Shown: positions 8,302 through 19,157 of the stretch, one piece after another
Layout of the letters: every line of letters begins with the position of its first letter
Position numbering within the stretch: position 1 is the stretch's first letter
Assembly (NCBI GenBank): GCA_038865865.1
Contig: JAWBZV010000011.1
Coordinates: forward strand, 1-40,992
Direction of reading: 5' to 3'
DNA: 40,992 nt
Source of the DNA: Candidatus Bathyarchaeia archaeon
GTDB lineage: Archaea > Thermoproteota > Bathyarchaeia > Bathyarchaeales > Bathycorpusculaceae
The notes under the pieces: model-generated
The model's input: only the letters and a program-made list of their open reading frames with translations
Database searches by the model: none
What the model was told of the DNA's origin: nothing
Program-made: the position numbers and the translations under genes

Positions 8302-9231
8302 TTGCAGGCAACCCTTCGACAAATAGTTAAAGAGGCTCTGGAAGCTAACTGCGAACAATTTGAAAGAGTTGTTGAAGAGGCTGGGGAGCTTATTTGCGGC
8401 GAAAAGGGCTATATCGGAAATTTTGAGGCTGTTGGAAGGCTTGCAAAACTTGCACCCTTGGGCAGGGCGCTGTTCATCAGCGACCTGCACGGCGACCTAG
8501 AAAGCCTGGTTGAAATTTTGGATGGAAGCGGTTTCCTTGAGGAGATGCGAAAGAACGACAGTTTATCCATAATTTTCCTAGGCGACTACGGAGATAGGGG
8601 AGTTTACTCCGCGGAGGTTTACTATACAATTTTAAGGCTTAAGCTGCTTTTCCCAAAGCAATTAATCCTCATGCGGGGAAACCACGAAGGCCCAGAGGAC
8701 CTTTTGGCTTCACCCCACGACCTGCCAGTTCAGTTTCGGAGAAAGTTCGGTGAAAAATGGCAAACAGCCTACGCCAAAATCCGGAGGTTGTTCAACTGCC
8801 TTTACAACGCAGTGCTCGTTGAAGGCCGCTATTTAGCAGTTCATGGAGGCTTGCCACCTGAGGCAAAAACGGTGGAGGACTTAGCCTATGCCCATGAGAG
8901 ACATCCAAGGGAAAGCCTCCTTGAGGATATGCTCTGGAGCGACCCAAATGAAATCATCGAGGAGACATGTGGTTCTCCAAGGGGTGCAGGAAAACTTTTC
9001 GGCGAAAAAATAACAAGGGAAGTTTTAGGCCGCTTCCACGTGGAAATTCTTATAAGGGGGCATGAACCGTGTCCGGAGGGCTTCAAAATAGACCATAAAG
9101 GCCGCGTTTTAACCCTTTTTTCAAGGAAGGGTCCACCCTACTTCAACGATTATGGAGCCTACCTCGTCCTGGACCTTTCTAAAAAGTTTCAAAACGCGGA
9201 GCAATTGATCCCGTACATTCGCAAGTTTTAA
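8302..9231 (+). CDS. PPP-family Ser/Thr protein phosphatase (metallophosphoesterase)
   Basis: Canonical PPP motifs GDLHGD (GDxHG), GDYGDRG (GDxxDRG) and RGNHE (GNHE). TTG start at 8302; no in-frame ATG lies upstream of the first motif. Confidence 0.8.
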   Translation: MQATLRQIVKEALEANCEQFERVVEEAGELICGEKGYIGNFEAVGRLAKLAPLGRALFISDLHGDLESLVEILDGSGFLEEMRKNDSLSIIFLGDYGDRGVYSAEVYYTILRLKLLFPKQLILMRGNHEGPEDLLASPHDLPVQFRRKFGEKWQTAYAKIRRLFNCLYNAVLVEGRYLAVHGGLPPEAKTVEDLAYAHERHPRESLLEDMLWSDPNEIIEETCGSPRGAGKLFGEKITREVLGRFHVEILIRGHEPCPEGFKIDHKGRVLTLFSRKGPPYFNDYGAYLVLDLSKKFQNAEQLIPYIRKF

Positions 9232-9287
9232 GGGCTGGTTATAAAAACGCGCGGAAACTTTAAGAACTAAGCTGGGCAGCATTTCCA

Positions 9288-10187
9288 ATGGTTAAAAGGG
9301 CGGTAGACGTTTTGAAAATTGGGATTGTAGCAAAAAATGTTAACGCGTATGGGTCGACAGCTCTGCGGGAAGCCTTGGTTAAGCGGGGCATCCCACACGA
9401 GTTCCTAAGTTTTCCAAAGCTCGTTGCACGCGTTGGATATAAGCCATACCTGAATGGAGGTAGACACGACATTTTAAGAGATTTTAACGCCCTAATAATC
9501 CGTCCAATCGGGCGGGGCTCCCTAGAGGAAACAGTTTTCAGGATGGACGTTCTTTATAGGCTGCAAAGGCAAGGGTTATACATTGTGAACCCTCCGGAGG
9601 CAATTGAACACTGCGTCGACAAATATGACATCCTAGCCATGCTGGAAGATAATGGCGTTCCTGTTCCCCGCACTGCTGTAACTGAAGATCCAGAGGAGGC
9701 TTTGAAGCTTTTCCACGAACTAGGCGGAGACGTCGTCGTGAAACCCCTCTTCGGCTCAAGGGGGGTGGGCTCAACCCGCGTCAGAGACCCTGATGTTGCA
9801 GCCACAATCTTTGACGCCATAACCTTTTATCATGGAGTAATATACATGCAGGAGTTTGTCCCCCACGGCTTTTCGGACATACGTGCCTTCGTTATAGGCG
9901 ACCGTGTGGCAGCTGCCATGCGCCGGGTATCAACAAGCTGGAAGACAAACTATAGTCAAGGTGCCCGCCCGGAGCCCATCAAACTGGATAGTTCGCTTGA
10001 AGATTTGGCCGTTAAGTCCTCAAAGGTTATAGGATGCAAAATTGCAGGCGTGGACATCCTCGAAAGTCCTAGGCCGCTGGTTATCGAAGTCAACAGTCAA
10101 CCTGGATGGAAGGGCCTACAATCCGTAACAGACATAAACATTGCAGATGAAATCGTGAGCTTTGTGCTCTCAGAACTGAAAAAGTAA
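9288..10187 (+). CDS. RimK-family ATP-grasp ligase (MptN/CofF-like cofactor alpha-L-glutamate ligase)
   Basis: 299 aa. ATP-grasp architecture with a central 'GGDVVVKPLFGSRGVG' loop and C-terminal 'VIEVNSQPGWKG', typical of RimK/MptN/CofF. Neighbourhood with C1/H4MPT genes. Confidence 0.7.
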   Translation: MVKRAVDVLKIGIVAKNVNAYGSTALREALVKRGIPHEFLSFPKLVARVGYKPYLNGGRHDILRDFNALIIRPIGRGSLEETVFRMDVLYRLQRQGLYIVNPPEAIEHCVDKYDILAMLEDNGVPVPRTAVTEDPEEALKLFHELGGDVVVKPLFGSRGVGSTRVRDPDVAATIFDAITFYHGVIYMQEFVPHGFSDIRAFVIGDRVAAAMRRVSTSWKTNYSQGARPEPIKLDSSLEDLAVKSSKVIGCKIAGVDILESPRPLVIEVNSQPGWKGLQSVTDINIADEIVSFVLSELKK

Positions 10188-10210
10188 AGGGGGCACCCAA
10201 TTTAATAGAA

Positions 10211-10987
10211 GTGGAAGTAGCTAAAATTGACGTTGCGTCTAAAAAGTTCGAGAAAATTAAGGATTACGTTGCCGAAGAAAAGCCCCTGAACATATTCATA
10301 AACAAAACTCAATATGTCACCATATTCTGTTACCCAATGGAGCTTAAGGAACTAGTTGTAGGCCACCTTCTCTCAGAAGGTGTGATAAAAAACGTTGAGG
10401 AAATAGAGCAAATAACCTTTGCTGAAGGCGGAATATGCCACATAAGCCTAAAACCTACCGTGAACCTTGACGCTCGGTTGAGGCTTGCCCAGCGGCTGTC
10501 CCGCATAATACCCTCAGCTTGTGGAGGCCCATATCAGCCTCAAGCCCTGAAGAGACTTAAAAAAATCGAGTCAAAGCTGACCGTTAAGGCGGAGACCATC
10601 CAAAACTGCACAGGCAACCTGAACCGCATGGCGGAAACCTTTAGAAAAACAGGAGGAGTCCATGCGGCCGCCGTCTACATGGCTGACGGAACCCTGTTGG
10701 CTTTAGCTGAAGATGTAGGCCGCCACAACGCTGTGGACAAGGTTATAGGGAAGTGCGCGTTGAATGGAACGAATTTCAAAGAGTGTTTTATAACTCTAAG
10801 CGGTAGACTTTCAGCCGACATAGTTTTAAAAGCTGCTAGGGTTGGCATACCAATAGTCGCCTCAATAGCTGCGGCGCTGGATTCAGGTATAGAAATCGCC
10901 AAGAAGGCGAACTTAACGCTTATAGGCTTTGTCCGCGGGAATCGCATGAACGTCTACAGCGTTCCTGAAAGGATATTACTTTCCTAA
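10211..10987 (+). CDS. fdhD: FdhD-family sulfurtransferase (pterin-cofactor sulfuration / formate dehydrogenase accessory protein)
   Basis: 258 aa with the conserved 'DVGRHNAVDKVIG' motif of FdhD and a Cys-containing 'SACGG' loop. Confidence 0.75.
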   Translation: MEVAKIDVASKKFEKIKDYVAEEKPLNIFINKTQYVTIFCYPMELKELVVGHLLSEGVIKNVEEIEQITFAEGGICHISLKPTVNLDARLRLAQRLSRIIPSACGGPYQPQALKRLKKIESKLTVKAETIQNCTGNLNRMAETFRKTGGVHAAAVYMADGTLLALAEDVGRHNAVDKVIGKCALNGTNFKECFITLSGRLSADIVLKAARVGIPIVASIAAALDSGIEIAKKANLTLIGFVRGNRMNVYSVPERILLS

Positions 10988-11113: not shown

Positions 11114-11911
11114 TTAGGCGCCCTTGCCTTTAAGCTTCTCTACAACTAGCTGCGCAACCCTTGCGCCGCTGAGAAGCATTCCTCCAAATATGGGTCCCAT
11201 GCGTGGCGTTTGGTCTATGGCGGCAACAGCCATGCCCGCAACAAAAAGTCCAGGGCAAACTTCCCTCGTGTTTTTAACCGTTAACTCCTCAGCCAGCGAG
11301 GACCACATGGACTTTTCGCCTTTGATGATTATTCCCAGTTCCGGAATTTTTCTAGAGGCTACAGCGAGAACCTCCGCATCATGGCCTGTGCAGTCAATTA
11401 CGGCTTTTGCTTTAACAGCCAAAGGGTCAACGTGGATGCCCGCCATGATGACGGATGTCCACTGAACAACAACGCCGACAACCCTAAGGGGCGCATCTCG
11501 ATATATTAAGTCGTCAACAGTTACGCCCAAAATTATTTTTGCCCCTGCGTCAACAGCTCCGCAGGCCAATTTCGCCATCATGTCAGCCGCATCCACGATG
11601 AAAAGGCCGTCTTCCACTGGTTCAAGTCTGCAGCCAACATCTTTGAGAATATGGTCCGCTGGCGACTGCACAACTACTTTGTGGAACTGCATGCCTCCGC
11701 CGCCTATTCCCCCGCCAAAGGATAGCTTCCTCTCAAAAACAACAGTTTTCAGCCCAGCCTTAGCCAAATGTCTAGCAGCGGTCAAGCCGGATGGGCCGGC
11801 TCCAACGACTACGACGTCTGTTTCAGCCAAGTTTATCCAGTCTTCCATTGCTTTCTGAATTATTGCCCTTGTTATGACTTCCTCTTCGACTTCCCTAACC
11901 TTTTCAGCCAC
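11114..11911 (-). CDS. thi4: Thiazole synthase Thi4 (archaeal type)
   Basis: N-terminal FAD/NAD Rossmann '[14 protein letters not shown]' and '[11 protein letters not shown]' Gly-rich motif diagnostic of Thi4/THI1. 265 aa. Confidence 0.85.
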
Positions 11912-12124
11912 TAGTTATTCCTCCAGCCCTTAGGAAAAGCTTTATACAGCTTTAAAACCGTTTCCTCATTAAGTGACCAAACATGCGGTGTCAAGTTTGC
12001 GGAAAAATCATAACAGGGAAACCCCTCATGCGCAAAACGTGTTGTGTGAATAAGCTTTACATTTTCTGTTCTGAAGAGTGCCTGCGGAAATGGTCTAGGA
12101 ACTGGCTTAAACGCCAAATATAAC

Positions 12125-13486
12125 CTAAACACTGTCTAATTTTCCTCCAACAATTTCAACTACAAGTTTTGCCAAGGAAACAGCATCCCTTTCAAAAACA
12201 ACTATCATGGGTTCCTTGCCAAAATCCCCCCTATGATAGATCACATCTGGCGCCCTTCCAACACTTTTTATAGCCTCACTCACACCCCAAGGTATTGTCA
12301 TACCCTCAACCCCCTTGATTTCCACGGGCTCTTTTGTGCGGTCATAGGAGGCTATGGTCAAGCCGCGTTTTTCCAAAATTTTCAGGGTTTCCTCTGAAAA
12401 CTTCAGGTTTATCACCGCCCTTTTATCCTCATCATATTTAATGGCTTCAACCAAGTACTTGGCTAGATGACGGGAGCACCCGAATTTTGGGCTTCCGGCA
12501 GCCCTAGCACCGCTCAATGTTTTAACGATTCTCCCCTCTATAGCGGCGACGTCACCGACGCTTTCAGCATACCTAACAGCCATGGCAATGTTCATACCCA
12601 CCTCCGGCACAAGCTCCGCAACTCCTGGACACCCCTCTAAAAGGTTTTTGGCCTTCTCCAAATTTAGCAAAACCTCGTACCTTGAAGCTTCCCGGTAGAG
12701 ATAAGCCATAGGATTCACTGGACCATAGCCCTTTCCAATTTTTAAGCCGAACTTTATGCTTAAAGCCACAAGGTTCTTGGCGTTTTCCACAGCTTTTGGA
12801 ATATCCAGTTTTTTGGCGAGTTCGGCGGCGATGGCGGCTGAAAAGCTGCATCCAGTTCCATGGGTAGTTTTCTTGTCAAGCCTGGGCGACGTGAACCTCC
12901 AGAACCTGCCCTTATAATAGAGGATGTCTGTAACTGTCGCGCCGTCGATGTGTCCGCCCTTAACCACAACCGCCTCCGGGCCCATCTCTGAAATTTTTTC
13001 CGAGGCAATTTCGGCATCCCTTAAGTTTTTAATATCGACTCCTGAAAGCCTTTCGGCCTCAAACTTGTTAGGAGTAACAACAGTTGCATTGGGGAGAAGT
13101 TGCCCTTTTAGGGCTTCTATGGCTTCAGGCTTCAGTAAGGGCGCACCAGACTTAGCAATCATCACCGGGTCTACAACCAGTGGGAAATTGTACTCTGAGA
13201 TCGTTGAGGCCACAGCTTTTATAATTTCCCCCGTGTGAAGCATGCCTGTTTTTCCAGCGTCGATGCCGAAATCTTCGGCGACAGCTCTAATTTGCTCGCT
13301 AACAATTTCTGGACTTAAATCTTGAACAGCCCTAACCGAGTAGGTGTTTTGAGCTGTTACGGACGTGACGGCGACTGTTCCATGAACACCCAACGCTGCG
13401 AAAGTTTTCAGGTCCGCCTGGATTCCTGCGCCTCCGCCGGAGTCGCTTCCAGCTATTGTTATGGCAACTGGAATACGGCTTTTCAT
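12125..13486 (-). CDS. thiDN: Bifunctional HMP-P kinase / thiamin-phosphate synthase ThiDN (ThiD N-domain fused to archaeal ThiN C-domain)
   Basis: N-terminus '[24 protein letters not shown]' is the ThiD signature. The C-terminal 200 aa match the ThiN family. The likely start is ATG 13486 (or 13492), giving an ATGA overlap with the thiC stop. The track ORF is extended to 13558. Confidence 0.85.
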
Positions 13487-14784
13487 AGGCATTGGCCCTC
13501 CACATTGAGGGCTTCCTTCAAAATTTTTATAGCACAATATTCTGAACACATGGAGCATGTTCCAGGGCTTTTCGGCTTCACCCGCCCATGAATTTTCTCA
13601 GCTTTTTGGGGGTCAATAGCGTTTCTAAACTGTCCCTCCCAGTCTAGATTCGCCCTAGCCTTGGCCATGGCTAAATCCTGCTTAGCAGCTTTAGCCCCAA
13701 ACTTTGCAATATCCGCGGCGTGGGCTGCGATTTTTGTTACTATCACACCCTCTTTAACGTCTTCTAAGCTCGGCAAGCCAAGGTGCTCCGCAGGGGTCAA
13801 GTAGCACAGGAAGTCGGCGCCCGCCAGACCCGCAACCGCTCCGCCTATAGCCCCAACGATGTGATCGTATCCCGGCGCCACCTCGGTGACAACAGGGCCT
13901 AGCACGTAAAAGGGGGCACCCTTGCAGATGGATTTTTCAAGCTTGACGTTTGCAGCCACGTCGTTGAGGGGAATGTGGCCGGGCCCTTCAACCATGACCT
14001 GCACGTTTGCATTCCTCGCCCTTTCAACAAGTTCTCCTATTGTGAGCAGCTCTTGGATTTGAGCCCAATCTGTCGAGTCAAATATGCAGCCGGGCCTTAA
14101 ACCATCACCTAGGCTTAGGGTGAAATCATATTTTTTGGCAAGCTCCAGCAGATAGTCGTAGTTCGCGTATAAGGGGTTCTCCCTGTTGTTGTGGAGTATC
14201 CATGCAGCTAGGAATGTTCCGCCGCGGCTCACAACCCCCATCAGCCTAGGATGCTTGGCCAGTTTTTTGACAATCTGCTGTGTGACGCCGCAGTGCACAG
14301 TCATGAAGTCAACCCCATCCTTGGCGTGTTTTTCAATGGTGTTGAATATGTCGTCCTCCGTCATGTGAATTATTGCCCCCTTCTTCCTCGCAACCTCCAC
14401 CGCTGCCTGGTAGATCGGGACGGTTCCTATTGGAACTTTTACAGCCTTAATTATGGCTTTCCTCACCTCGTCTAAGTCGCCTGCTGTGCTTAGATCCATA
14501 ACCGTGTCTGCGCCATATTTGACGGCAACTTTGGCCTTCTCAACCTCGAGGTTTAAATCGCACATGTCTGGACTTGTGCCAACGTTGGCGTTAACCTTTG
14601 TGCGTAACCCCTGGCCGATCCCCACAGGGTGGACGTTTTCGCGTTGAATGTTGCGGGTTATAACGACCACGCCTTTGGCTATGCGTCGGCAGATCCTTTT
14701 CGGAGATATCCCCTCATCCTCAGCGACGATACGCATCTCCTGGGTTATATGGCCATTTTTAGCTGCACCCATCTGCGTTGTCAC
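13483..14784 (-). CDS. thiC: Phosphomethylpyrimidine synthase ThiC
   Basis: Full-length similarity to ThiC including the C-terminal radical-SAM cluster motif 'CSMCSEYC'. GTG start at 14784 preceded by GGGAGG (14791-14796 complement). Confidence 0.9.
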
Positions 14785-14849
14785 AGAAAACCTCCCTTAT
14801 CTAAAACTAAAATTAACGCTTTAAAGAAGTTTGTAGTCACAACAGCTCA

Positions 14850-14950
14850 CTCCATTATCCCTCCGCCGGCATTACCCGGATCAGGTTCTAAGGGTCGACG
14901 GCGCTCAGCCGTCCTCTCAGCCGGGTCACCGCCCAGCTCCCCAACCCTTG
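14850..14950 (-). ncRNA. TPP riboswitch (THI-box) in the thiC 5' leader
   Basis: The minus-strand RNA reads ...GGGCGGUGACCCGGCUGAGAGGACGGCUGAGCGCCGUCGACCCUUAGAACCUGAUCCGGGUAAUGCCGGCGGAGGGAU.... It contains CUGAGA and a near-consensus 'ACCUGAUCNGGNUAAUGCCNGCGNAGGGA' block, with compensatory CCGGGU/CCGGCG pairing relative to E. coli thiM (CUGGAU/CCAGCG). It lies 70-170 nt upstream of the thiC GTG. Confidence 0.8.
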
Positions 14951-14995
14951 AACCGGTAAGGGTTCCCTTATATAAAAACCCTTCGAATGCATGCG

Positions 14996-15829
14996 CTAAA
15001 AGGACAGCCCTTTTTCGTTTTTCCACTTCTCGTAGGTTATGGCTATGGGAACTGAAACCAGCTGTTTTTTGGTTTTAAGCCTCACCTGCTTTTCGTAAGG
15101 CCTAATGTAAATCTCCTCTTCCAACGGGTGGATTTCAAGAGTTGCATAGCCATATGTGACGAGAAAACTTGTCATGAAAGCCCTGTACACGGTGTCCTTG
15201 TAGGTGGCAACCCTCACAAAGTCCCAGTATCGAATTTTTCCGTCCACGCCTTCAGCCTTAACACGGCTCTTAAGCTCCTCCCAGAAGTTTTCAAGCTCTT
15301 CAGTGAAAGCCTTCTCCCTCAAAATTCGCTGCTTTACAAGTTCCTCAAGGGTGACAAAGCCGGCCTCCGTCTCAGGTTGCTGGAAAGTCTGCCACCTCTC
15401 CTTTAGGGGTGTTAGGCCATCCCAGTAACGGATGGCCTCAGCCAAGCTGTGGAGGGATATTTGCTCCATTTCAACAATTGGATGCCAAGCTTTAAGGAAG
15501 ATTTCAACCATTTCCTCTTTACCCAAGCTTCGGATTTTCTCTTCAAGGAGGAAGGGGTCTGTGTAAAGCGATGTGGAGCGGTGCTTAACCCATTCGCTTT
15601 GAAGCTTTATCACTGAGGCTATGCGGTTGATGGCCTCGGCGTCAAGGCATAGGTCTTCAACGTCCTCCCACCCAGGGAAGTATTCCCTAACAATTTTTAA
15701 GATCTCATCAACGTTTAGCAGGAAGGGGTCTAAGGAACGCTCCTCAATAGACCTGCAAATCTCGATGACGCGTTGAAGTTTTTCCCTTCCAGCTTTAACG
15801 CGTTCCTTTTTGGACTGCATCGGAAACAT
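14996..15829 (-). CDS. Possible ScpA-like kleisin (segregation and condensation protein A) / hypothetical
   Basis: 277 aa. N-terminal 'SLDPFLLNVDEILKIV' loosely resembles the ScpA N-terminal helix, and the C-terminal 'SFLVTYGYATLEI' resembles the ScpA winged-helix end. Same strand as the SMC-like gene, 1.4 kb downstream. Weak. Confidence 0.4.
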   Translation of the reverse strand: MFPMQSKKERVKAGREKLQRVIEICRSIEERSLDPFLLNVDEILKIVREYFPGWEDVEDLCLDAEAINRIASVIKLQSEWVKHRSTSLYTDPFLLEEKIRSLGKEEMVEIFLKAWHPIVEMEQISLHSLAEAIRYWDGLTPLKERWQTFQQPETEAGFVTLEELVKQRILREKAFTEELENFWEELKSRVKAEGVDGKIRYWDFVRVATYKDTVYRAFMTSFLVTYGYATLEIHPLEEEIYIRPYEKQVRLKTKKQLVSVPIAITYEKWKNEKGLSF

Positions 15830-15909
15830 CTCTAGTTAGGGGTTAACCCTTAACCTTCAGGTGTATATGAGAATTCGCTGGTGCACGATAAAAAGGTATT
15901 CTCCACTTT

Positions 15910-17145
15910 TCAGCCGCGTCTAAATTTCCTTATGAAAATCGCTGCAACTAATGCGGCTATCACCGTGACCGCGGCTATTACGGCCGTTGCTGAAATCCAT
16001 GTTGTTTGCCCTGCTGGCGGAAACTCTCCACTCCCATCTTCCATAACTTCCAAAATTACTTCTTTCACGTCCTCAAGGTTACTGTTCCACGACCAGAGTT
16101 CAGCTTGAACGACTGCCTGCCCTTTGAAGTTCATTTTATCAGGTAGCCTAAAAGCGAAATGAGCCCCAGCCTGCCCGTTTGCGCTTGGTATTTCAACATG
16201 GCTTGAGCCTAAAAAGCCCGCTTCCTCTCCGCCGAAGAAAAGGCGGTAGCGGACCTCCGCCTCGTAGACAACGGCTAACATGTCGTTGCCCCTCCTCACG
16301 GCAACCTCTATGGTTACATTTTCTCCGGGCTTGTAGGCGCCTTTACCCGTTGACATTTTCTCAATCCAGGCAAACTTGCTTTCAGCCTCCTTAAACTGTA
16401 GGGCGTAGTCGCATCTCATCGTTAGTAAACCCAGCCTAAGCTCTGTTGAAACCACAAATCGATCTTTAACCCACTTGGACTCATGGCGGAGCACACCCAT
16501 CTTTCCCTCCTGTATGGACCATTTCCCATCAGGTACTTGAACGCCTTCAACCTCCCAAACACCTACAAGGTAGGCGTCGAAAACCTCGGGTTTGCCTTTG
16601 AAATAAGTGTCAATTGTAACCCTACAGTCTTTTGAGTACACTAGATTTGGCAGGTTCAGCTGGTCTGTAAGCTTAATGGAACCCATGGCGTAAAGCATGA
16701 AGTAGGCTTCATTTTGCCTTGGGATTTCACAATCATACTTTACAAAGATTCTGAATGGGAAGGCTAGGGATGGAGAGCCGTTCACGGTCCATTCTATGAC
16801 GCTGTAGTTTCCAACAGCCGTTTCATAAGTTAGGTTGGAGCGTTTCCAATTAATTTCTTCCTGTTCGCCGTCTTTAACGTAAGTTACTTTAATGTTCTGG
16901 GCGTTTGATGGCAGGGGATAGAACATTTGAACTTCGTTGATTGTCTCCCCCCACATTTTCTCAAAGGTGTATATTCCCTCAACCAGAGCCTTTGGCGGGT
17001 AAACGTGGATGGTTATGTTTTCCTCAGACATTTTCACTCTATAATTGACGGGTATTGGGTTAGATTGACAGACAGGTGTTAAGACAAGCAAGAGCACTAA
17101 TGCTGAAGCCGTGGCGGCAGAAATCCAAATTGGTCTTCTAATCAT
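15910..17145 (-). CDS. Secreted, membrane-anchored hypothetical protein
   Basis: 411 aa. N-terminal signal peptide-like segment 'AATASALVLLLVLTPVCQS' and a C-terminal hydrophobic anchor 'ISATAVIAAVTVIAALVAAIFIRKFRRG'. Beta-rich Thr/Tyr/Trp central region. Confidence 0.5.
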   Translation of the reverse strand: MIRRPIWISAATASALVLLLVLTPVCQSNPIPVNYRVKMSEENITIHVYPPKALVEGIYTFEKMWGETINEVQMFYPLPSNAQNIKVTYVKDGEQEEINWKRSNLTYETAVGNYSVIEWTVNGSPSLAFPFRIFVKYDCEIPRQNEAYFMLYAMGSIKLTDQLNLPNLVYSKDCRVTIDTYFKGKPEVFDAYLVGVWEVEGVQVPDGKWSIQEGKMGVLRHESKWVKDRFVVSTELRLGLLTMRCDYALQFKEAESKFAWIEKMSTGKGAYKPGENVTIEVAVRRGNDMLAVVYEAEVRYRLFFGGEEAGFLGSSHVEIPSANGQAGAHFAFRLPDKMNFKGQAVVQAELWSWNSNLEDVKEVILEVMEDGSGEFPPAGQTTWISATAVIAAVTVIAALVAAIFIRKFRRG

Positions 17146-17237
17146 TTTAACCCCCTATAACCCATCCTGTTTGGAGGATATTATCCTAACTTTTAGTACA
17201 CATTATCCAACCGTTAGAACATAAGCTGAAACGATTT

Positions 17238-19157
17238 TTAGCCCACTGTTTTGATGAAGGATTTTCCTTCAACGTTTTGAACTACTATGACGTTCACGTC
17301 TTCAGACGCAACGGGCAACTGGCTTGGCGTGATGACAACGTATTGGACATCTAAACCTTTAACAGAATCCACAATTATTTTTGCAATAATCTCTCTCATA
17401 CGGCTGTCCATGTGAACGTCGTATTCATCTACTGCTCGGAAGGGGGAGCGCACATGCTGTTGTAGGGCTAATAGGAAACTCATGGTGGCTGTGGTTCGTT
17501 CACCCCCGCTTTGTGTATAAGCGTCTAATGGTACGGGTTTTCCACCCTTGAATCCAACGAAGATTTCAAGCCCGGCAGCCTCTATATCATGTCCATCAAC
17601 AAGCTTGACTTCTCCTAAAGCCTGGGACTGGGCTAGAATCTTCTGGTATTCAAGGTTCACCTTTTCCAGAAGGCTTTCAATCACAGTTCTCCAAGCCTGC
17701 ATCCGTGTTTTAACCTCCTCCAAAGCCTTCTCTCGGTTTTCCGCAACCATCCGCGCCTTCTCCTTAAGCTCTAAGTAAAGCTTTGAGTAGGACTCATACA
17801 TGTGCTCCACATCCTCAGAAACGTTTGCTAAAGCGGCTAAGTGCCCGTCGGTTATGCGGATCTCCTCTATAATTTCGCTTGGGCTTTTAATGACGGCGAT
17901 TCTAGGCCCTGTTTCCTCAGCCTTTTTCACGGCGGATGCTAAAAGTCCCTTCGCGTCCTTAAGCGCTCCTTCAATCTCTTCAATGTTCGCCTTTAAGCTC
18001 TCCACGCGATGCTGAAGCAAAGCCAACTTGACCCGCGTCTCGAGAACTTGGCCGGCAACCTTCTCCATCTCCTCTTCAAGAAGCCTCATTTTCGCCTGAT
18101 TATCATACAGCCCCTTGTCCAGCTTGAAGATCTCCTGACTCGAACTTTCTATAATTTCCCTCAGGCTCTCGGTTTTTAAAAGCTTGAACTGCTGGGGGTT
18201 GGCGCGAACATCGCCTATTATTGCTGCTTCTTGGAGAAGCTGCTCGCAAAGCGTGATTACCGCCTGATTTTGGGCTTTCTCCCTTTCAAGGGTTATTCGT
18301 TCATCAAAGATCTTTTTCCATTCGCTCCTTAACTTTTCAAGCTGGCTTTGGCTGTCTCGGAGCTGTTCCACCGCGTTTTTTGTTTCACCTTCCAGCTGAA
18401 CCAGCATGGCCAGCTCTTTTTCGCGTTTTTCCTCAAGCTCTCTGACCATGTTTTCCCTTCGAGTGACCTCCGCCCAAGCCAGCTCTCGCTCCAGGAAACG
18501 CCGCTTTGCATGCAACTGTTTTTTCTCTTGAAACCTGTCGTACTGTTCCCTCCAATAGTTCAGCGTCTGCTCCGCTGACTCCAAAAGCTTGTTTATGGAT
18601 TCCTCTTGACTTAGGATACGCGTAAGCTTTTTCTGGGCTTGAACAACATTTTCGCGGTAGGCCTCAAGCCCAACAGCAGCCTCAACCATGCGCAGCTTTT
18701 CCTGTTTAGAAAGCACGGTGAACTGTTCCACCATGTTCTGATGCATGATGATAAGCATGTTGTCAGGATCGACGCCCAGCTTTGACAAAAGCCTTTCAAC
18801 ATCCTGTTTCGTAGCCGCCCTATTCTCAAGCTCAAACCAGTACTTGCCATCCCGCCTCAAAACCCGTGTTAGAAAAATCTGATCCTTGCTAAACTTTTGA
18901 ACAGGCCTCCTCCCGCCCCGTTTTGTATTATCCAAAATAAGCGTTACACGCGCTTGGTCTCTACCCCAACGGATCAAGTCGCTAAGCTTCCTGGAACGTT
19001 CAGTGTAAGACTGGCCCAAAGCTACGGAAATAGCCAAAAGAAGGGAAGACTTGCCAGCGCCGTTCGGCCCGCAGACAATGTTGACGCCTGGTTTAAGGGG
19101 AACCCTAGCATACTCGTAACTCATGAAGTTTTCAAGGATTACCTCCTGAATCAGCAT
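17238..19157 (-). CDS. Short SMC-like / Rad50-like coiled-coil ABC ATPase
   Basis: 639 aa. N-terminal Walker A 'GPNGAGKSSLL', about 400 aa of heptad-rich coiled coil, C-terminal ABC signature 'SGGERT' and Walker B/D-loop 'VDEYDVHMD'. No CxxC zinc hook and no hinge-length region. Confidence 0.75.
   Translation of the reverse strand: MLIQEVILENFMSYEYARVPLKPGVNIVCGPNGAGKSSLLLAISVALGQSYTERSRKLSDLIRWGRDQARVTLILDNTKRGGRRPVQKFSKDQIFLTRVLRRDGKYWFELENRAATKQDVERLLSKLGVDPDNMLIIMHQNMVEQFTVLSKQEKLRMVEAAVGLEAYRENVVQAQKKLTRILSQEESINKLLESAEQTLNYWREQYDRFQEKKQLHAKRRFLERELAWAEVTRRENMVRELEEKREKELAMLVQLEGETKNAVEQLRDSQSQLEKLRSEWKKIFDERITLEREKAQNQAVITLCEQLLQEAAIIGDVRANPQQFKLLKTESLREIIESSSQEIFKLDKGLYDNQAKMRLLEEEMEKVAGQVLETRVKLALLQHRVESLKANIEEIEGALKDAKGLLASAVKKAEETGPRIAVIKSPSEIIEEIRITDGHLAALANVSEDVEHMYESYSKLYLELKEKARMVAENREKALEEVKTRMQAWRTVIESLLEKVNLEYQKILAQSQALGEVKLVDGHDIEAAGLEIFVGFKGGKPVPLDAYTQSGGERTTATMSFLLALQQHVRSPFRAVDEYDVHMDSRMREIIAKIIVDSVKGLDVQYVVITPSQLPVASEDVNVIVVQNVEGKSFIKTVG

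Follow-up and report, generated by a model that had tools for sequence, protein, structure and literature searches.

The thiM leader of Escherichia coli is a translational thiamine pyrophosphate (TPP) switch, in which the Shine-Dalgarno (SD) sequence is sequestered through anti-SD and anti-anti-SD pairing. Downstream ribosome-binding sites (RBSs) may also be unmasked by leader open reading frames (ORFs) and translational coupling, as with the erm leader peptides and the coat-replicase coupling of MS2. In Archaea, THI elements were reportedly described in Thermoplasma by Rodionov in 2002. Here we analyse the thiamine operon thiC-thiDN-orf73-thi4 of a Candidatus Bathyarchaeia archaeon, encoded on a stretch of 40,992 nucleotides (nt; contig JAWBZV010000011.1 of assembly GCA_038865865.1) which is referred to as the window. 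The minus-strand leader of thiC holds an element that is a further member of the known TPP riboswitch class in a rarely reported lineage. Judged from the sequence and its comparison with relatives, the stretch 14953-14840 is most probably a working aptamer that binds TPP and in response turns off translation of the thiamine operon.

Few riboswitches are known from Archaea, and TPP riboswitches have apparently not been put to experimental test there. A census by McCown (2017) listed 79 riboswitches of all classes in Euryarchaeota, six in Crenarchaeota and one each in Korarchaeota and Thaumarchaeota, with TPP being one of only two classes commonly seen in archaea, in low numbers (PMC5473149). 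This census bears out a first-pass annotation of the window, which had described archaeal TPP riboswitches as sparse, and an archaeal ThiC had already been listed as TPP-regulated (Hoeppner, 2012; PMC3486863). By 2021 experimental tests had been carried out on only one natural archaeal riboswitch, the fluoride switch of Thermococcus kodakarensis (PMC8241225). In the full-text library searched, no report connected Bathyarchaeota with a riboswitch.

The Aptamer in the thiC Leader

Scanning the whole window on both strands with Rfam cmscan at gathering thresholds places RF00059 (TPP) at 14953-14840 of the minus strand, covering model positions 1-105 of 105 with 60.1 bits (E = 1.7e-9) against a gathering score of 54.3 bits. 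This search had been named by the first-pass annotation as the check on its TPP riboswitch in the minus-strand thiC leader, which it confirms. There is no other Rfam match on either strand of the 41-kb window, which confirms the earlier statement that no second aptamer precedes thiDN or thi4. The clade-specific model R1 scores the window aptamer at 119.7 bits, and its GC content is 63% compared with a background of 47-49%.

Both sensor arms of the TPP aptamer are present (Table 1). The pyrimidine-sensor arm comprises GGG/CCC, GCUGGG/CCCGGC, CUGAGA in J3-2 and GGACGG/CCGUC, while the pyrophosphate-sensor arm comprises CCU/AGG and CCGG/CCGG with the loop GUAAUG, including the RF00059 features ACCUGAUC, the UAAU loop and GCG.AGGGA. 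The window copy keeps all of its P2-P5 pairs and all the junction nucleotides that contact the ligand. The motifs quoted by the first-pass annotation (CUGAGA, the hairpin, the GACCCUUAGAACCUGAUCCGGGUAAUGCCGGCGGAGGGA block, GGGAGG and GTG) are all found on the minus strand, and of the P1-P5 stems that it expected, P2-P5 form together with the conserved junctions whereas P1 is weak, with only GUU/AAU pairing beside the junction. It had also placed the aptamer 60-70 nt before the SD, and the core does end at 14858, 61 nt before the SD and 73 nt before the GTG start codon of thiC. Its further claim, that the conserved block differs from the E. coli thiM aptamer only by compensatory changes, was overstated. 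The window has GCGGAGGGA where the consensus has GCGUAGGGA, such that the P4 G-U pair becomes a G-G mismatch. The GGAGG of P4 thus appears to have arisen by a U-to-G change at the cost of a base pair, with a candidate start codon following in the 3′ strand of P1.

Occurrence and Covariation in Relatives

ThiC-anchored searches of genomes, metagenomes and a protein collection yielded 173 loci (denoted by L-numbers). The aptamer was found at the same position in 25 homologous loci, giving 26 leaders with the window; a thiC-leader aptamer was present in eight genome loci, eight metagenome loci (one of which duplicates a genome locus) and 10 of 12 further loci. The aptamer core of the relatives ends approximately 75-85 nt before the thiC start. 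The same aptamer subtype occurs in two more distant archaeal loci, L118 and L123, and two platform variants (groups A and B) can be distinguished among the thiC leaders, besides the arrangements of L118 and L123.

In an alignment of 16 sequences, 99.1% of the P2-P5 cells are paired. The P3 helices are 100% paired and contain the five pairs with compensatory double changes, while the P4/P5 arm is invariant except for one unpaired P5 cell, with L118 having CCAG/CUGG. None of 500 shuffles reached the observed pairing, and slid-partner controls paired at only 30-58%. P1 also covaries among the relatives (UCAAGGUCU/AGACCUUGA, UUUUG/CAAAA, GUUUU/AAAAC and GUU/AAC). In many of them P1 is extended, with a distal helix GUUCA/UGAAC separated from a short proximal one by a purine-rich internal loop (AAGG/GGAG).

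The aptamer is confined to one Bathyarchaeia sub-clade and the two related lineages represented by L118 and L123. No aptamer, even a degenerate one, was detected in nine sister Bathyarchaeia and Brockarchaeota loci at E <= 1 or with the clade-specific model. It was likewise absent from 20 thiC loci of methanogens, Methanomassiliicoccales, Hadarchaeota and Thermoplasmata, and from the remaining archaeal loci when these were scanned with the clade-specific model. Riboswitch-bearing loci keep the gene order thiC-thiDN-(orf73)-thi4, while the relatives that lack the riboswitch have no downstream thi4.

Other gene arrangements were encountered in these searches. In four Bathyarchaeia thiC loci without a riboswitch (L083, L085, L089 and L092; 77-79% ThiC identity) the place of thiDN shortly after thiC is taken by a tRNA gene containing a long insertion (91 nt match), which shows that thiamine genes are not arranged alike throughout the class. 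The ThiC of L161 and L169 (P0066 and P0068, one of them labelled Candidatus Nezhaarchaeales) is 82% identical to that of the window and is encoded downstream of an anaerobic ribonucleotide reductase gene, with neither aptamer nor thiDN, such that high ThiC identity does not predict riboswitch presence. At L123 (972-1597), where the gene order is thiW-orf198-thiC-thiDN, the aptamer lies directly before thiW, encoding an energy-coupling factor S component (TIGR02359, 159.8 bits), and the same 5′ UUCAAGGG motif and TATA box are present. At L118 (2224-2503) the leader containing this aptamer subtype is about 180 nt long.

Predicted Sequestration of the thiC Shine-Dalgarno Sequence

Translational repression, rather than transcription termination, is the best reading of the expression platform, because there is no terminator and both the SD and the start codon lie in a strong hairpin with a conserved anti-SD. 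In the minimum free energy (MFE) structures AAACUUCU (14832-14825) pairs with the thiC SD GGAGGUUU (14795-14788) to form the upper stem of this hairpin, while in the lower stem GCUGUUGUGAC (14846-14836) pairs with GUGACAACGC (14784-14775), which hides the start and codons 2-4 of thiC. The energy of the hairpin is -20.5 kcal/mol at 37°C and -9.0 kcal/mol at 60°C, with a modelled probability of 0.05-0.08 that the SD is unpaired in the window, and the SD is 95% paired when the aptamer is enforced. SD-like sequences (GGAGG, GAGG or GGAG) are conserved in the aligned leaders of the relatives; covariation in the anti-SD/SD helix is not obtainable because the SD is invariant, and the MAFFT alignment puts the window one column out of register at this helix. 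No terminator-like site (a hairpin followed by a T-run) was found in 14600-15100, and scans for bacterial-type terminators and sigma-70 promoters returned nothing relevant. The SD sequestration proposed by the first-pass annotation is therefore supported, in that GGGAGG is predicted to pair with a conserved anti-SD, although in equilibrium folds the SD is masked with or without the aptamer.

Transcription in archaea usually starts 22-24 nt after the TATA box. A TATA-like box sits upstream of the aptamer in all relatives, and the spacing in the window predicts a transcription start at the 5′ edge of the aptamer (Table 1). The TATA spacings quoted here are for boxes checked by eye, the automatic locator having given inconsistent boxes in some loci. 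The window (14943-14978, minus strand) and L165 share the promoter stretch TTCGAAGGGTTTTTATATAAG with the same TATA box, the window spacer being 6 nt shorter, and transcription would therefore be expected to begin within the extended P1.

A Model for the Switch

It is proposed that the aptamer, with which the thiC-thiDN-orf73-thi4 mRNA would begin, functions as an OFF switch on translation initiation. With TPP bound, the 3′ strands of P4 and P1 (GGAGG and AAU-GGAG-UGAGCU) would be locked inside the aptamer and the CU-rich motif would stay on the thiC SD, switching the operon off. At low TPP the freed purine-rich strands would relieve this masking by either or both of two routes. In route (a) they would mimic the SD and capture the CU-rich motif by pairing, as in the classical anti-sequestor arrangement of E. 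coli thiM, while in route (b) they would serve as the RBS of a 9-codon leader ORF, translation of which through the CU-rich motif would open the hairpin.

The only platform consensus helix found by RNAalifold pairs the aptamer GGAGG with CUUCU of the anti-SD motif in 12 of 12 group-A leaders, in keeping with SD mimicry. The P1 3′ strand after P4 reads AAU-GGAG-U, while the group B aptamers end in GGGAGUGA and the group B SDs are GGAGUGA or GAGGUGA. Enforcing the aptamer at 37°C lowers the probability of an unpaired SD in seven of 16 leaders and raises it in none. Some relatives have clear anti-aptamer strands beside the SD, and at L091 the alternative fold is favoured over the aptamer fold by approximately 18 kcal/mol. 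The possibility that the 5′ strand of the aptamer pairs with the anti-SD motif or the proximal CU-rich element was considered and rejected, the window duplexes being weak (-4.5 and -5.5 kcal/mol); these duplexes beat shuffles only in some relatives (-16.9 kcal/mol in L008, -13.3 in the L005 group and -15.9 in L006).

A number of observations weigh against such a switch. In the equilibrium models, whether constrained or unconstrained and at both 37 and 60°C, the window SD has a pairing probability of about 95% regardless of the aptamer, and a fold that leaves it free is approximately 9 kcal/mol less stable than the MFE. Since the SD is masked in both modelled states, a purely thermodynamic two-state RNA switch is not reproduced, and an equilibrium RNA-only switch in the window is unsupported by the modelling, which is not to reject it as biology. 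The duplex energies of candidate anti-sequestor pairings are near those of shuffled controls, and relatives differ in the partner of the SD, which is either the distal motif Y or a proximal CU-rich element. P1 is marginal in the window copy, with Rfam flagging its pairs as non-canonical. The spacer from the TATA box to the aptamer (P2) is 26 nt in the window compared with 32-35 nt in most relatives, and the predicted transcript may therefore lack the 5′ strand of the distal P1. All folding energies derive from nearest-neighbour models at 37 or 60°C, for a host estimated to grow near 63°C. The remaining points concern the leader ORF and are given with it below.

Alternative Explanations

In a specific form of route (b), the aptamer may act as a relay, hiding an RBS (GGAGG at 14864-14860 and GUG at 14850-14848) such that the leader ORF is translated only at low TPP and its translation unmasks thiC, an explanation that is possible but doubtful. 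Neither the aptamer-internal GGAGG nor the short ORF that follows it had been noticed in the first-pass annotation. The GUG starts 9 nt after the GGAGG, a normal SD-start spacing for the operon, and the UAA (14823-14821) lies inside the anti-SD motif. A leader ORF starts at the same position in 17 of 19 group-A leaders with GUG, AUG or UUG, the first base of the codon varying while the U and G are fixed, and in all of these 17 the ORF extends as far as the anti-SD motif or beyond it, with one lineage showing an in-frame 3-nt length difference. Group B leaders carry a comparable ORF that begins 10 nt after GGGAG and in two of them stops inside the thiC SD. The homologous GGAGG of L123, 9 nt before the thiW ATG, is the only SD of a real gene, while at L118 a putative 60-codon ORF, beginning 6 nt downstream of the aptamer GGAGG, ends in a TGA that overlaps the thiC ATG (ATGA) and so couples the two. 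Translation of the leader would explain the opening of a sequestor of -20.5 kcal/mol, and the footprint of the leader ORF includes the SD partner in the window, L001, L004, L006 and L090, but not in L008, L082 and L088.

The leader peptide, however, is not conserved and shows no codon periodicity or third-position bias, with 27 synonymous compared with 163 non-synonymous codon differences. The ORF is absent, broken or frameshifted in L081, L084 and L086, passes through the motif in a different frame in L002-L004, and is lost or shifted in three to six leaders overall, while GGAGG is common in the genome, with 139 copies in the 41 kb. The unconserved peptide, the broken ORFs of L081, L084 and L086 and the frequency of GGAGG also count against the OFF switch as proposed. 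Chance short ORFs arise easily in AU-rich leaders, the sequences are related, and NUGA may be conserved because the distal P1 strand pairs with the 5′ UCA. A 2-codon mini-ORF (AUG GAG UGA), 4 nt after GGAGG, was seen in only a few sequences and judged to be due to chance. Only tentatively is it suggested that this aptamer subtype could hold the full RBS of the first downstream ORF in its own 3′ strands, with a leader of 9-14 codons stripping the anti-SD off the thiC SD.

Transcriptional attenuation, in which TPP would provoke premature termination by archaeal RNA polymerase or FttA/aCPSF1 at the U-tracts 14812-14809 and 14806-14803, is rather unlikely. Archaeal termination needs only oligo-U tracts, T4-T6 runs are found in the platform of most relatives, and the bacterial thiC riboswitches of the same data set, with a stem-loop and T-run, appear to act in this way. 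However, the window lacks a hairpin-plus-U-run terminator and its platform has T4 runs only, the two UUUU tracts just given. Nor are the tracts positionally conserved, being absent in L001 and L163, and in several relatives they lie within helix arms or abut the SD, pairing with the AAA flanks of the anti-SD motif.

It is improbable that the window holds a decaying or constitutively off copy, that is, a real ancestral aptamer in which a 6-nt deletion truncated P1 and the leader merely damps thiC translation. Such decay would be in keeping with the lowest Rfam score of the clade (60.1 compared with 61-79 bits), the short TATA-to-P2 spacer, the masking of the SD in both modelled states and the degeneration of the proximal anti-aptamer element from AGCUUAUUCCAG in L005 to UUUUAGUUUUAG in the window. 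Yet the ligand-contacting junction nucleotides and all P2-P5 pairs are intact, as are the leader ORF, the anti-SD motif and the SD, and the GGUUCA/UGAGCU complementarity is retained. An identical ThiC on five contigs points to a living lineage, and the transcription start on which the truncation depends is a predicted one. A chance resemblance to the THI box without RNA function, for which only the modest margin over the gathering score speaks, is effectively refuted by the E value, the GC content, the position directly upstream of thiamine genes and the syntenic conservation in 25 loci with compensatory changes.

The Thiamine Operon and Its Neighbours

The thiC-thiDN-thi4 operon recognised by the first-pass annotation is upheld by family matches to TIGR00190, NF006346 and TIGR00292 (Table 1). 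The thiDN ATG at 13486 overlaps the thiC stop codon as ATGA, orf73 overlaps both the thiDN stop and the thi4 start, and the thi4 GTG overlaps the orf73 stop codon (TAGTG), such that the genes thiC-thiDN-orf73-thi4 are tightly and translationally coupled. GGAGG lies 6-10 nt before the start of every operon gene and the organism therefore uses Shine-Dalgarno initiation. The NCBI record of an identical ThiC (P0001, 429 aa) begins at the internal ATG 14772, four codons after the GTG. The GTG at 14784 is the better start, because an SD lies 6 nt upstream of it and the residues TTQ are conserved in relatives. The orf73 protein is kept at 38-63% identity in seven riboswitch-bearing loci and absent from four; it has no Pfam or NCBIfam match, with none in Pfam even at E <= 10, and may be an unrecognised thiamine-pathway accessory protein.

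The archaeal origin given by the first-pass annotation agrees with ThiC identity, which places the DNA in Bathyarchaeia. An annotated protein of a Candidatus Bathyarchaeia metagenome-assembled genome (MAG) matches ThiC at 100% identity, the identical protein being present on five contigs, and ThiC is 89% identical to its counterpart in the Bathyarchaeia MAG DRTY-6_201912_bins_43, which by its name probably comes from a hot spring. The IVYWREL fraction of 0.425 (26 ORFs) gives a rough growth estimate of about 63°C, and the host is probably a thermophile.

Upstream of the operon, a cluster at 14996-19157 (minus strand) encodes a 639-aa SMC/Rad50-like ATPase, a 411-aa protein without an assigned family and a 277-aa protein. 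The ATPase matches SMC_N, with weak matches to an archaea-specific SMC-related protein and arcadin-4, and the 277-aa protein has a weak match to Nse4_C (kleisin-like). The cluster may encode an archaeal SMC-like complex and is not conserved beside thiC in relatives. Convergent with the end of the operon and unrelated to the riboswitch, the region 8302-10987 (plus strand) encodes a metallophosphoesterase, a RimK-family ATP-grasp ligase and FdhD, the ligase resembling the tetrahydromethanopterin:glutamate ligase MptN at 260 bits, under the cut-off of 350.

Table 1. Coordinates of the riboswitch, its expression platform and the operon genes in the window.
Feature	Position	Strand	Basis or remark
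TATA-like box TTTTTATATAA, promoter of the riboswitch-thiC transcript	14968..14978	-	Read from sequence
Predicted transcription start	~14949-14945	-	Inferred from TATA spacing
TPP riboswitch aptamer (THI element, RF00059)	14840..14953	-	Rfam match, canonical core fold, covariation
Possible distal P1 (6 bp), GGUUCA with UGAGCU	14954-49 with 14849-44	-	Forms in constrained folds
Proximal P1, GUU with AAU	14945-43 with 14856-54	-	Only pairs forming beside the junction
Aptamer core P2-P5	14942-14858	-	Folds canonically in all homologues
J3-2, CUGAGA	14920-14915	-	Read from sequence
Variable GC-rich hairpin, GGACGG...CCGUC	Between CUGAGA and the GACCCUUAGAACCUGAUCCGGGUAAUGCCGGCGGAGGGA block	-	Sequence
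Conserved block GACCCUUAGAACCUGAUCCGGGUAAUGCCGGCGGAGGGA	14896-14858	-	Sequence
P4, CCU with AGG	14885-83 with 14862-60	-	
P5, CCGG with CCGG	14879-76 with 14869-66	-	
GGAGG in the P4 3′ strand, SD look-alike	14860..14864	-	G replacing consensus U in GCG(U/G)AGGGA
Candidate 9-codon leader ORF	14821..14850	-	GUG AGC UGU UGU GAC UAC AAA CUU CUU UAA (VSCCDYKLL*)
CU-rich anti-SD motif AAACUUCUUUAAA (Y)	14820..14832	-	Most conserved platform element, alignments A1-A3
Sequestor hairpin	14775..14846	-	Upper stem anti-SD/SD; lower stem masks start
thiC SD, GGGAGG	14791..14796	-	6 nt before GTG 14784-14782
thiC	13483..14784	-	Phosphomethylpyrimidine synthase, GTG start; TIGR00190, 657 bits
thiDN SD, GGAGGG	13501-13496	-	
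thiDN	12125..13486	-	Hydroxymethylpyrimidine (HMP)/HMP-P kinase fused to ThiN thiamine-phosphate synthase; NF006346, 623 bits
orf73	11911..12132	-	73 codons
thi4	11114..11911	-	Sulfide-dependent ADP-thiazole synthase; TIGR00292, 334 bits

Comparison with Known Systems

The 26 homologous leaders offer a comparatively rich test case of how a bacterial-style metabolite sensor is wired to archaeal expression without intrinsic hairpin terminators. Thiamine regulation also differs within Bathyarchaeia, with a thermophilic sub-clade having a compact riboswitch-controlled thiC-thiDN-thi4 operon and sister lineages having neither riboswitch nor thi4 linkage. The embedded RBS and leader-ORF relay, if true, would be a new coupling of an aptamer to a distant start site, and in Archaea, while the GC-rich, thermostable aptamer could serve as a regulatory part for thermophilic archaea.

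The fluoride riboswitch of T. kodakarensis is likewise archaeal and thought to act on translation, with a different ligand and fold. Coupling of the erm and MS2 type resembles the window in that a short upstream ORF ends inside the strand masking a downstream SD, but in the window the SD and start of the leader, here a candidate ORF, would hide inside a metabolite-binding aptamer. The bacterial thiC TPP riboswitches (e.g., Desulforadius tongensis L047 and Geosporobacter ferrireducens L077) have the same aptamer class before the same gene, scoring 36-65 bits with the clade-specific model. In each of six such leaders from the same searches, thiC is preceded by a GC-rich stem-loop and a T-run that were interpreted by eye as a terminator, and five of the six leaders have the consensus GCGUAGGGA, whereas the window has no terminator.

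Compared with RF00059 itself, the window shows the same full-length match in the 5′ leader of a thiamine gene, the same P2/P3 and P4/P5 arms with CUGAGA in J3-2, and the same pyrophosphate-sensor arm ACCUGAUCC...UAAU...GGCG.AGGGA, differing in its weak proximal P1, its P4 G-G mismatch giving a perfect GGAGG, and its Bathyarchaeia host. Like E. coli thiM, it would be a terminator-less OFF switch with the SD paired to a pyrimidine-rich anti-SD and a candidate competitor for the anti-SD in the 3′ strands of the aptamer. It differs from thiM in that the sequestor also covers the start codon and is far more stable than any alternative pairing, in that the aptamer strand itself supplies a perfect SD with a start codon after it, and in that the promoter and the ribosome are archaeal.

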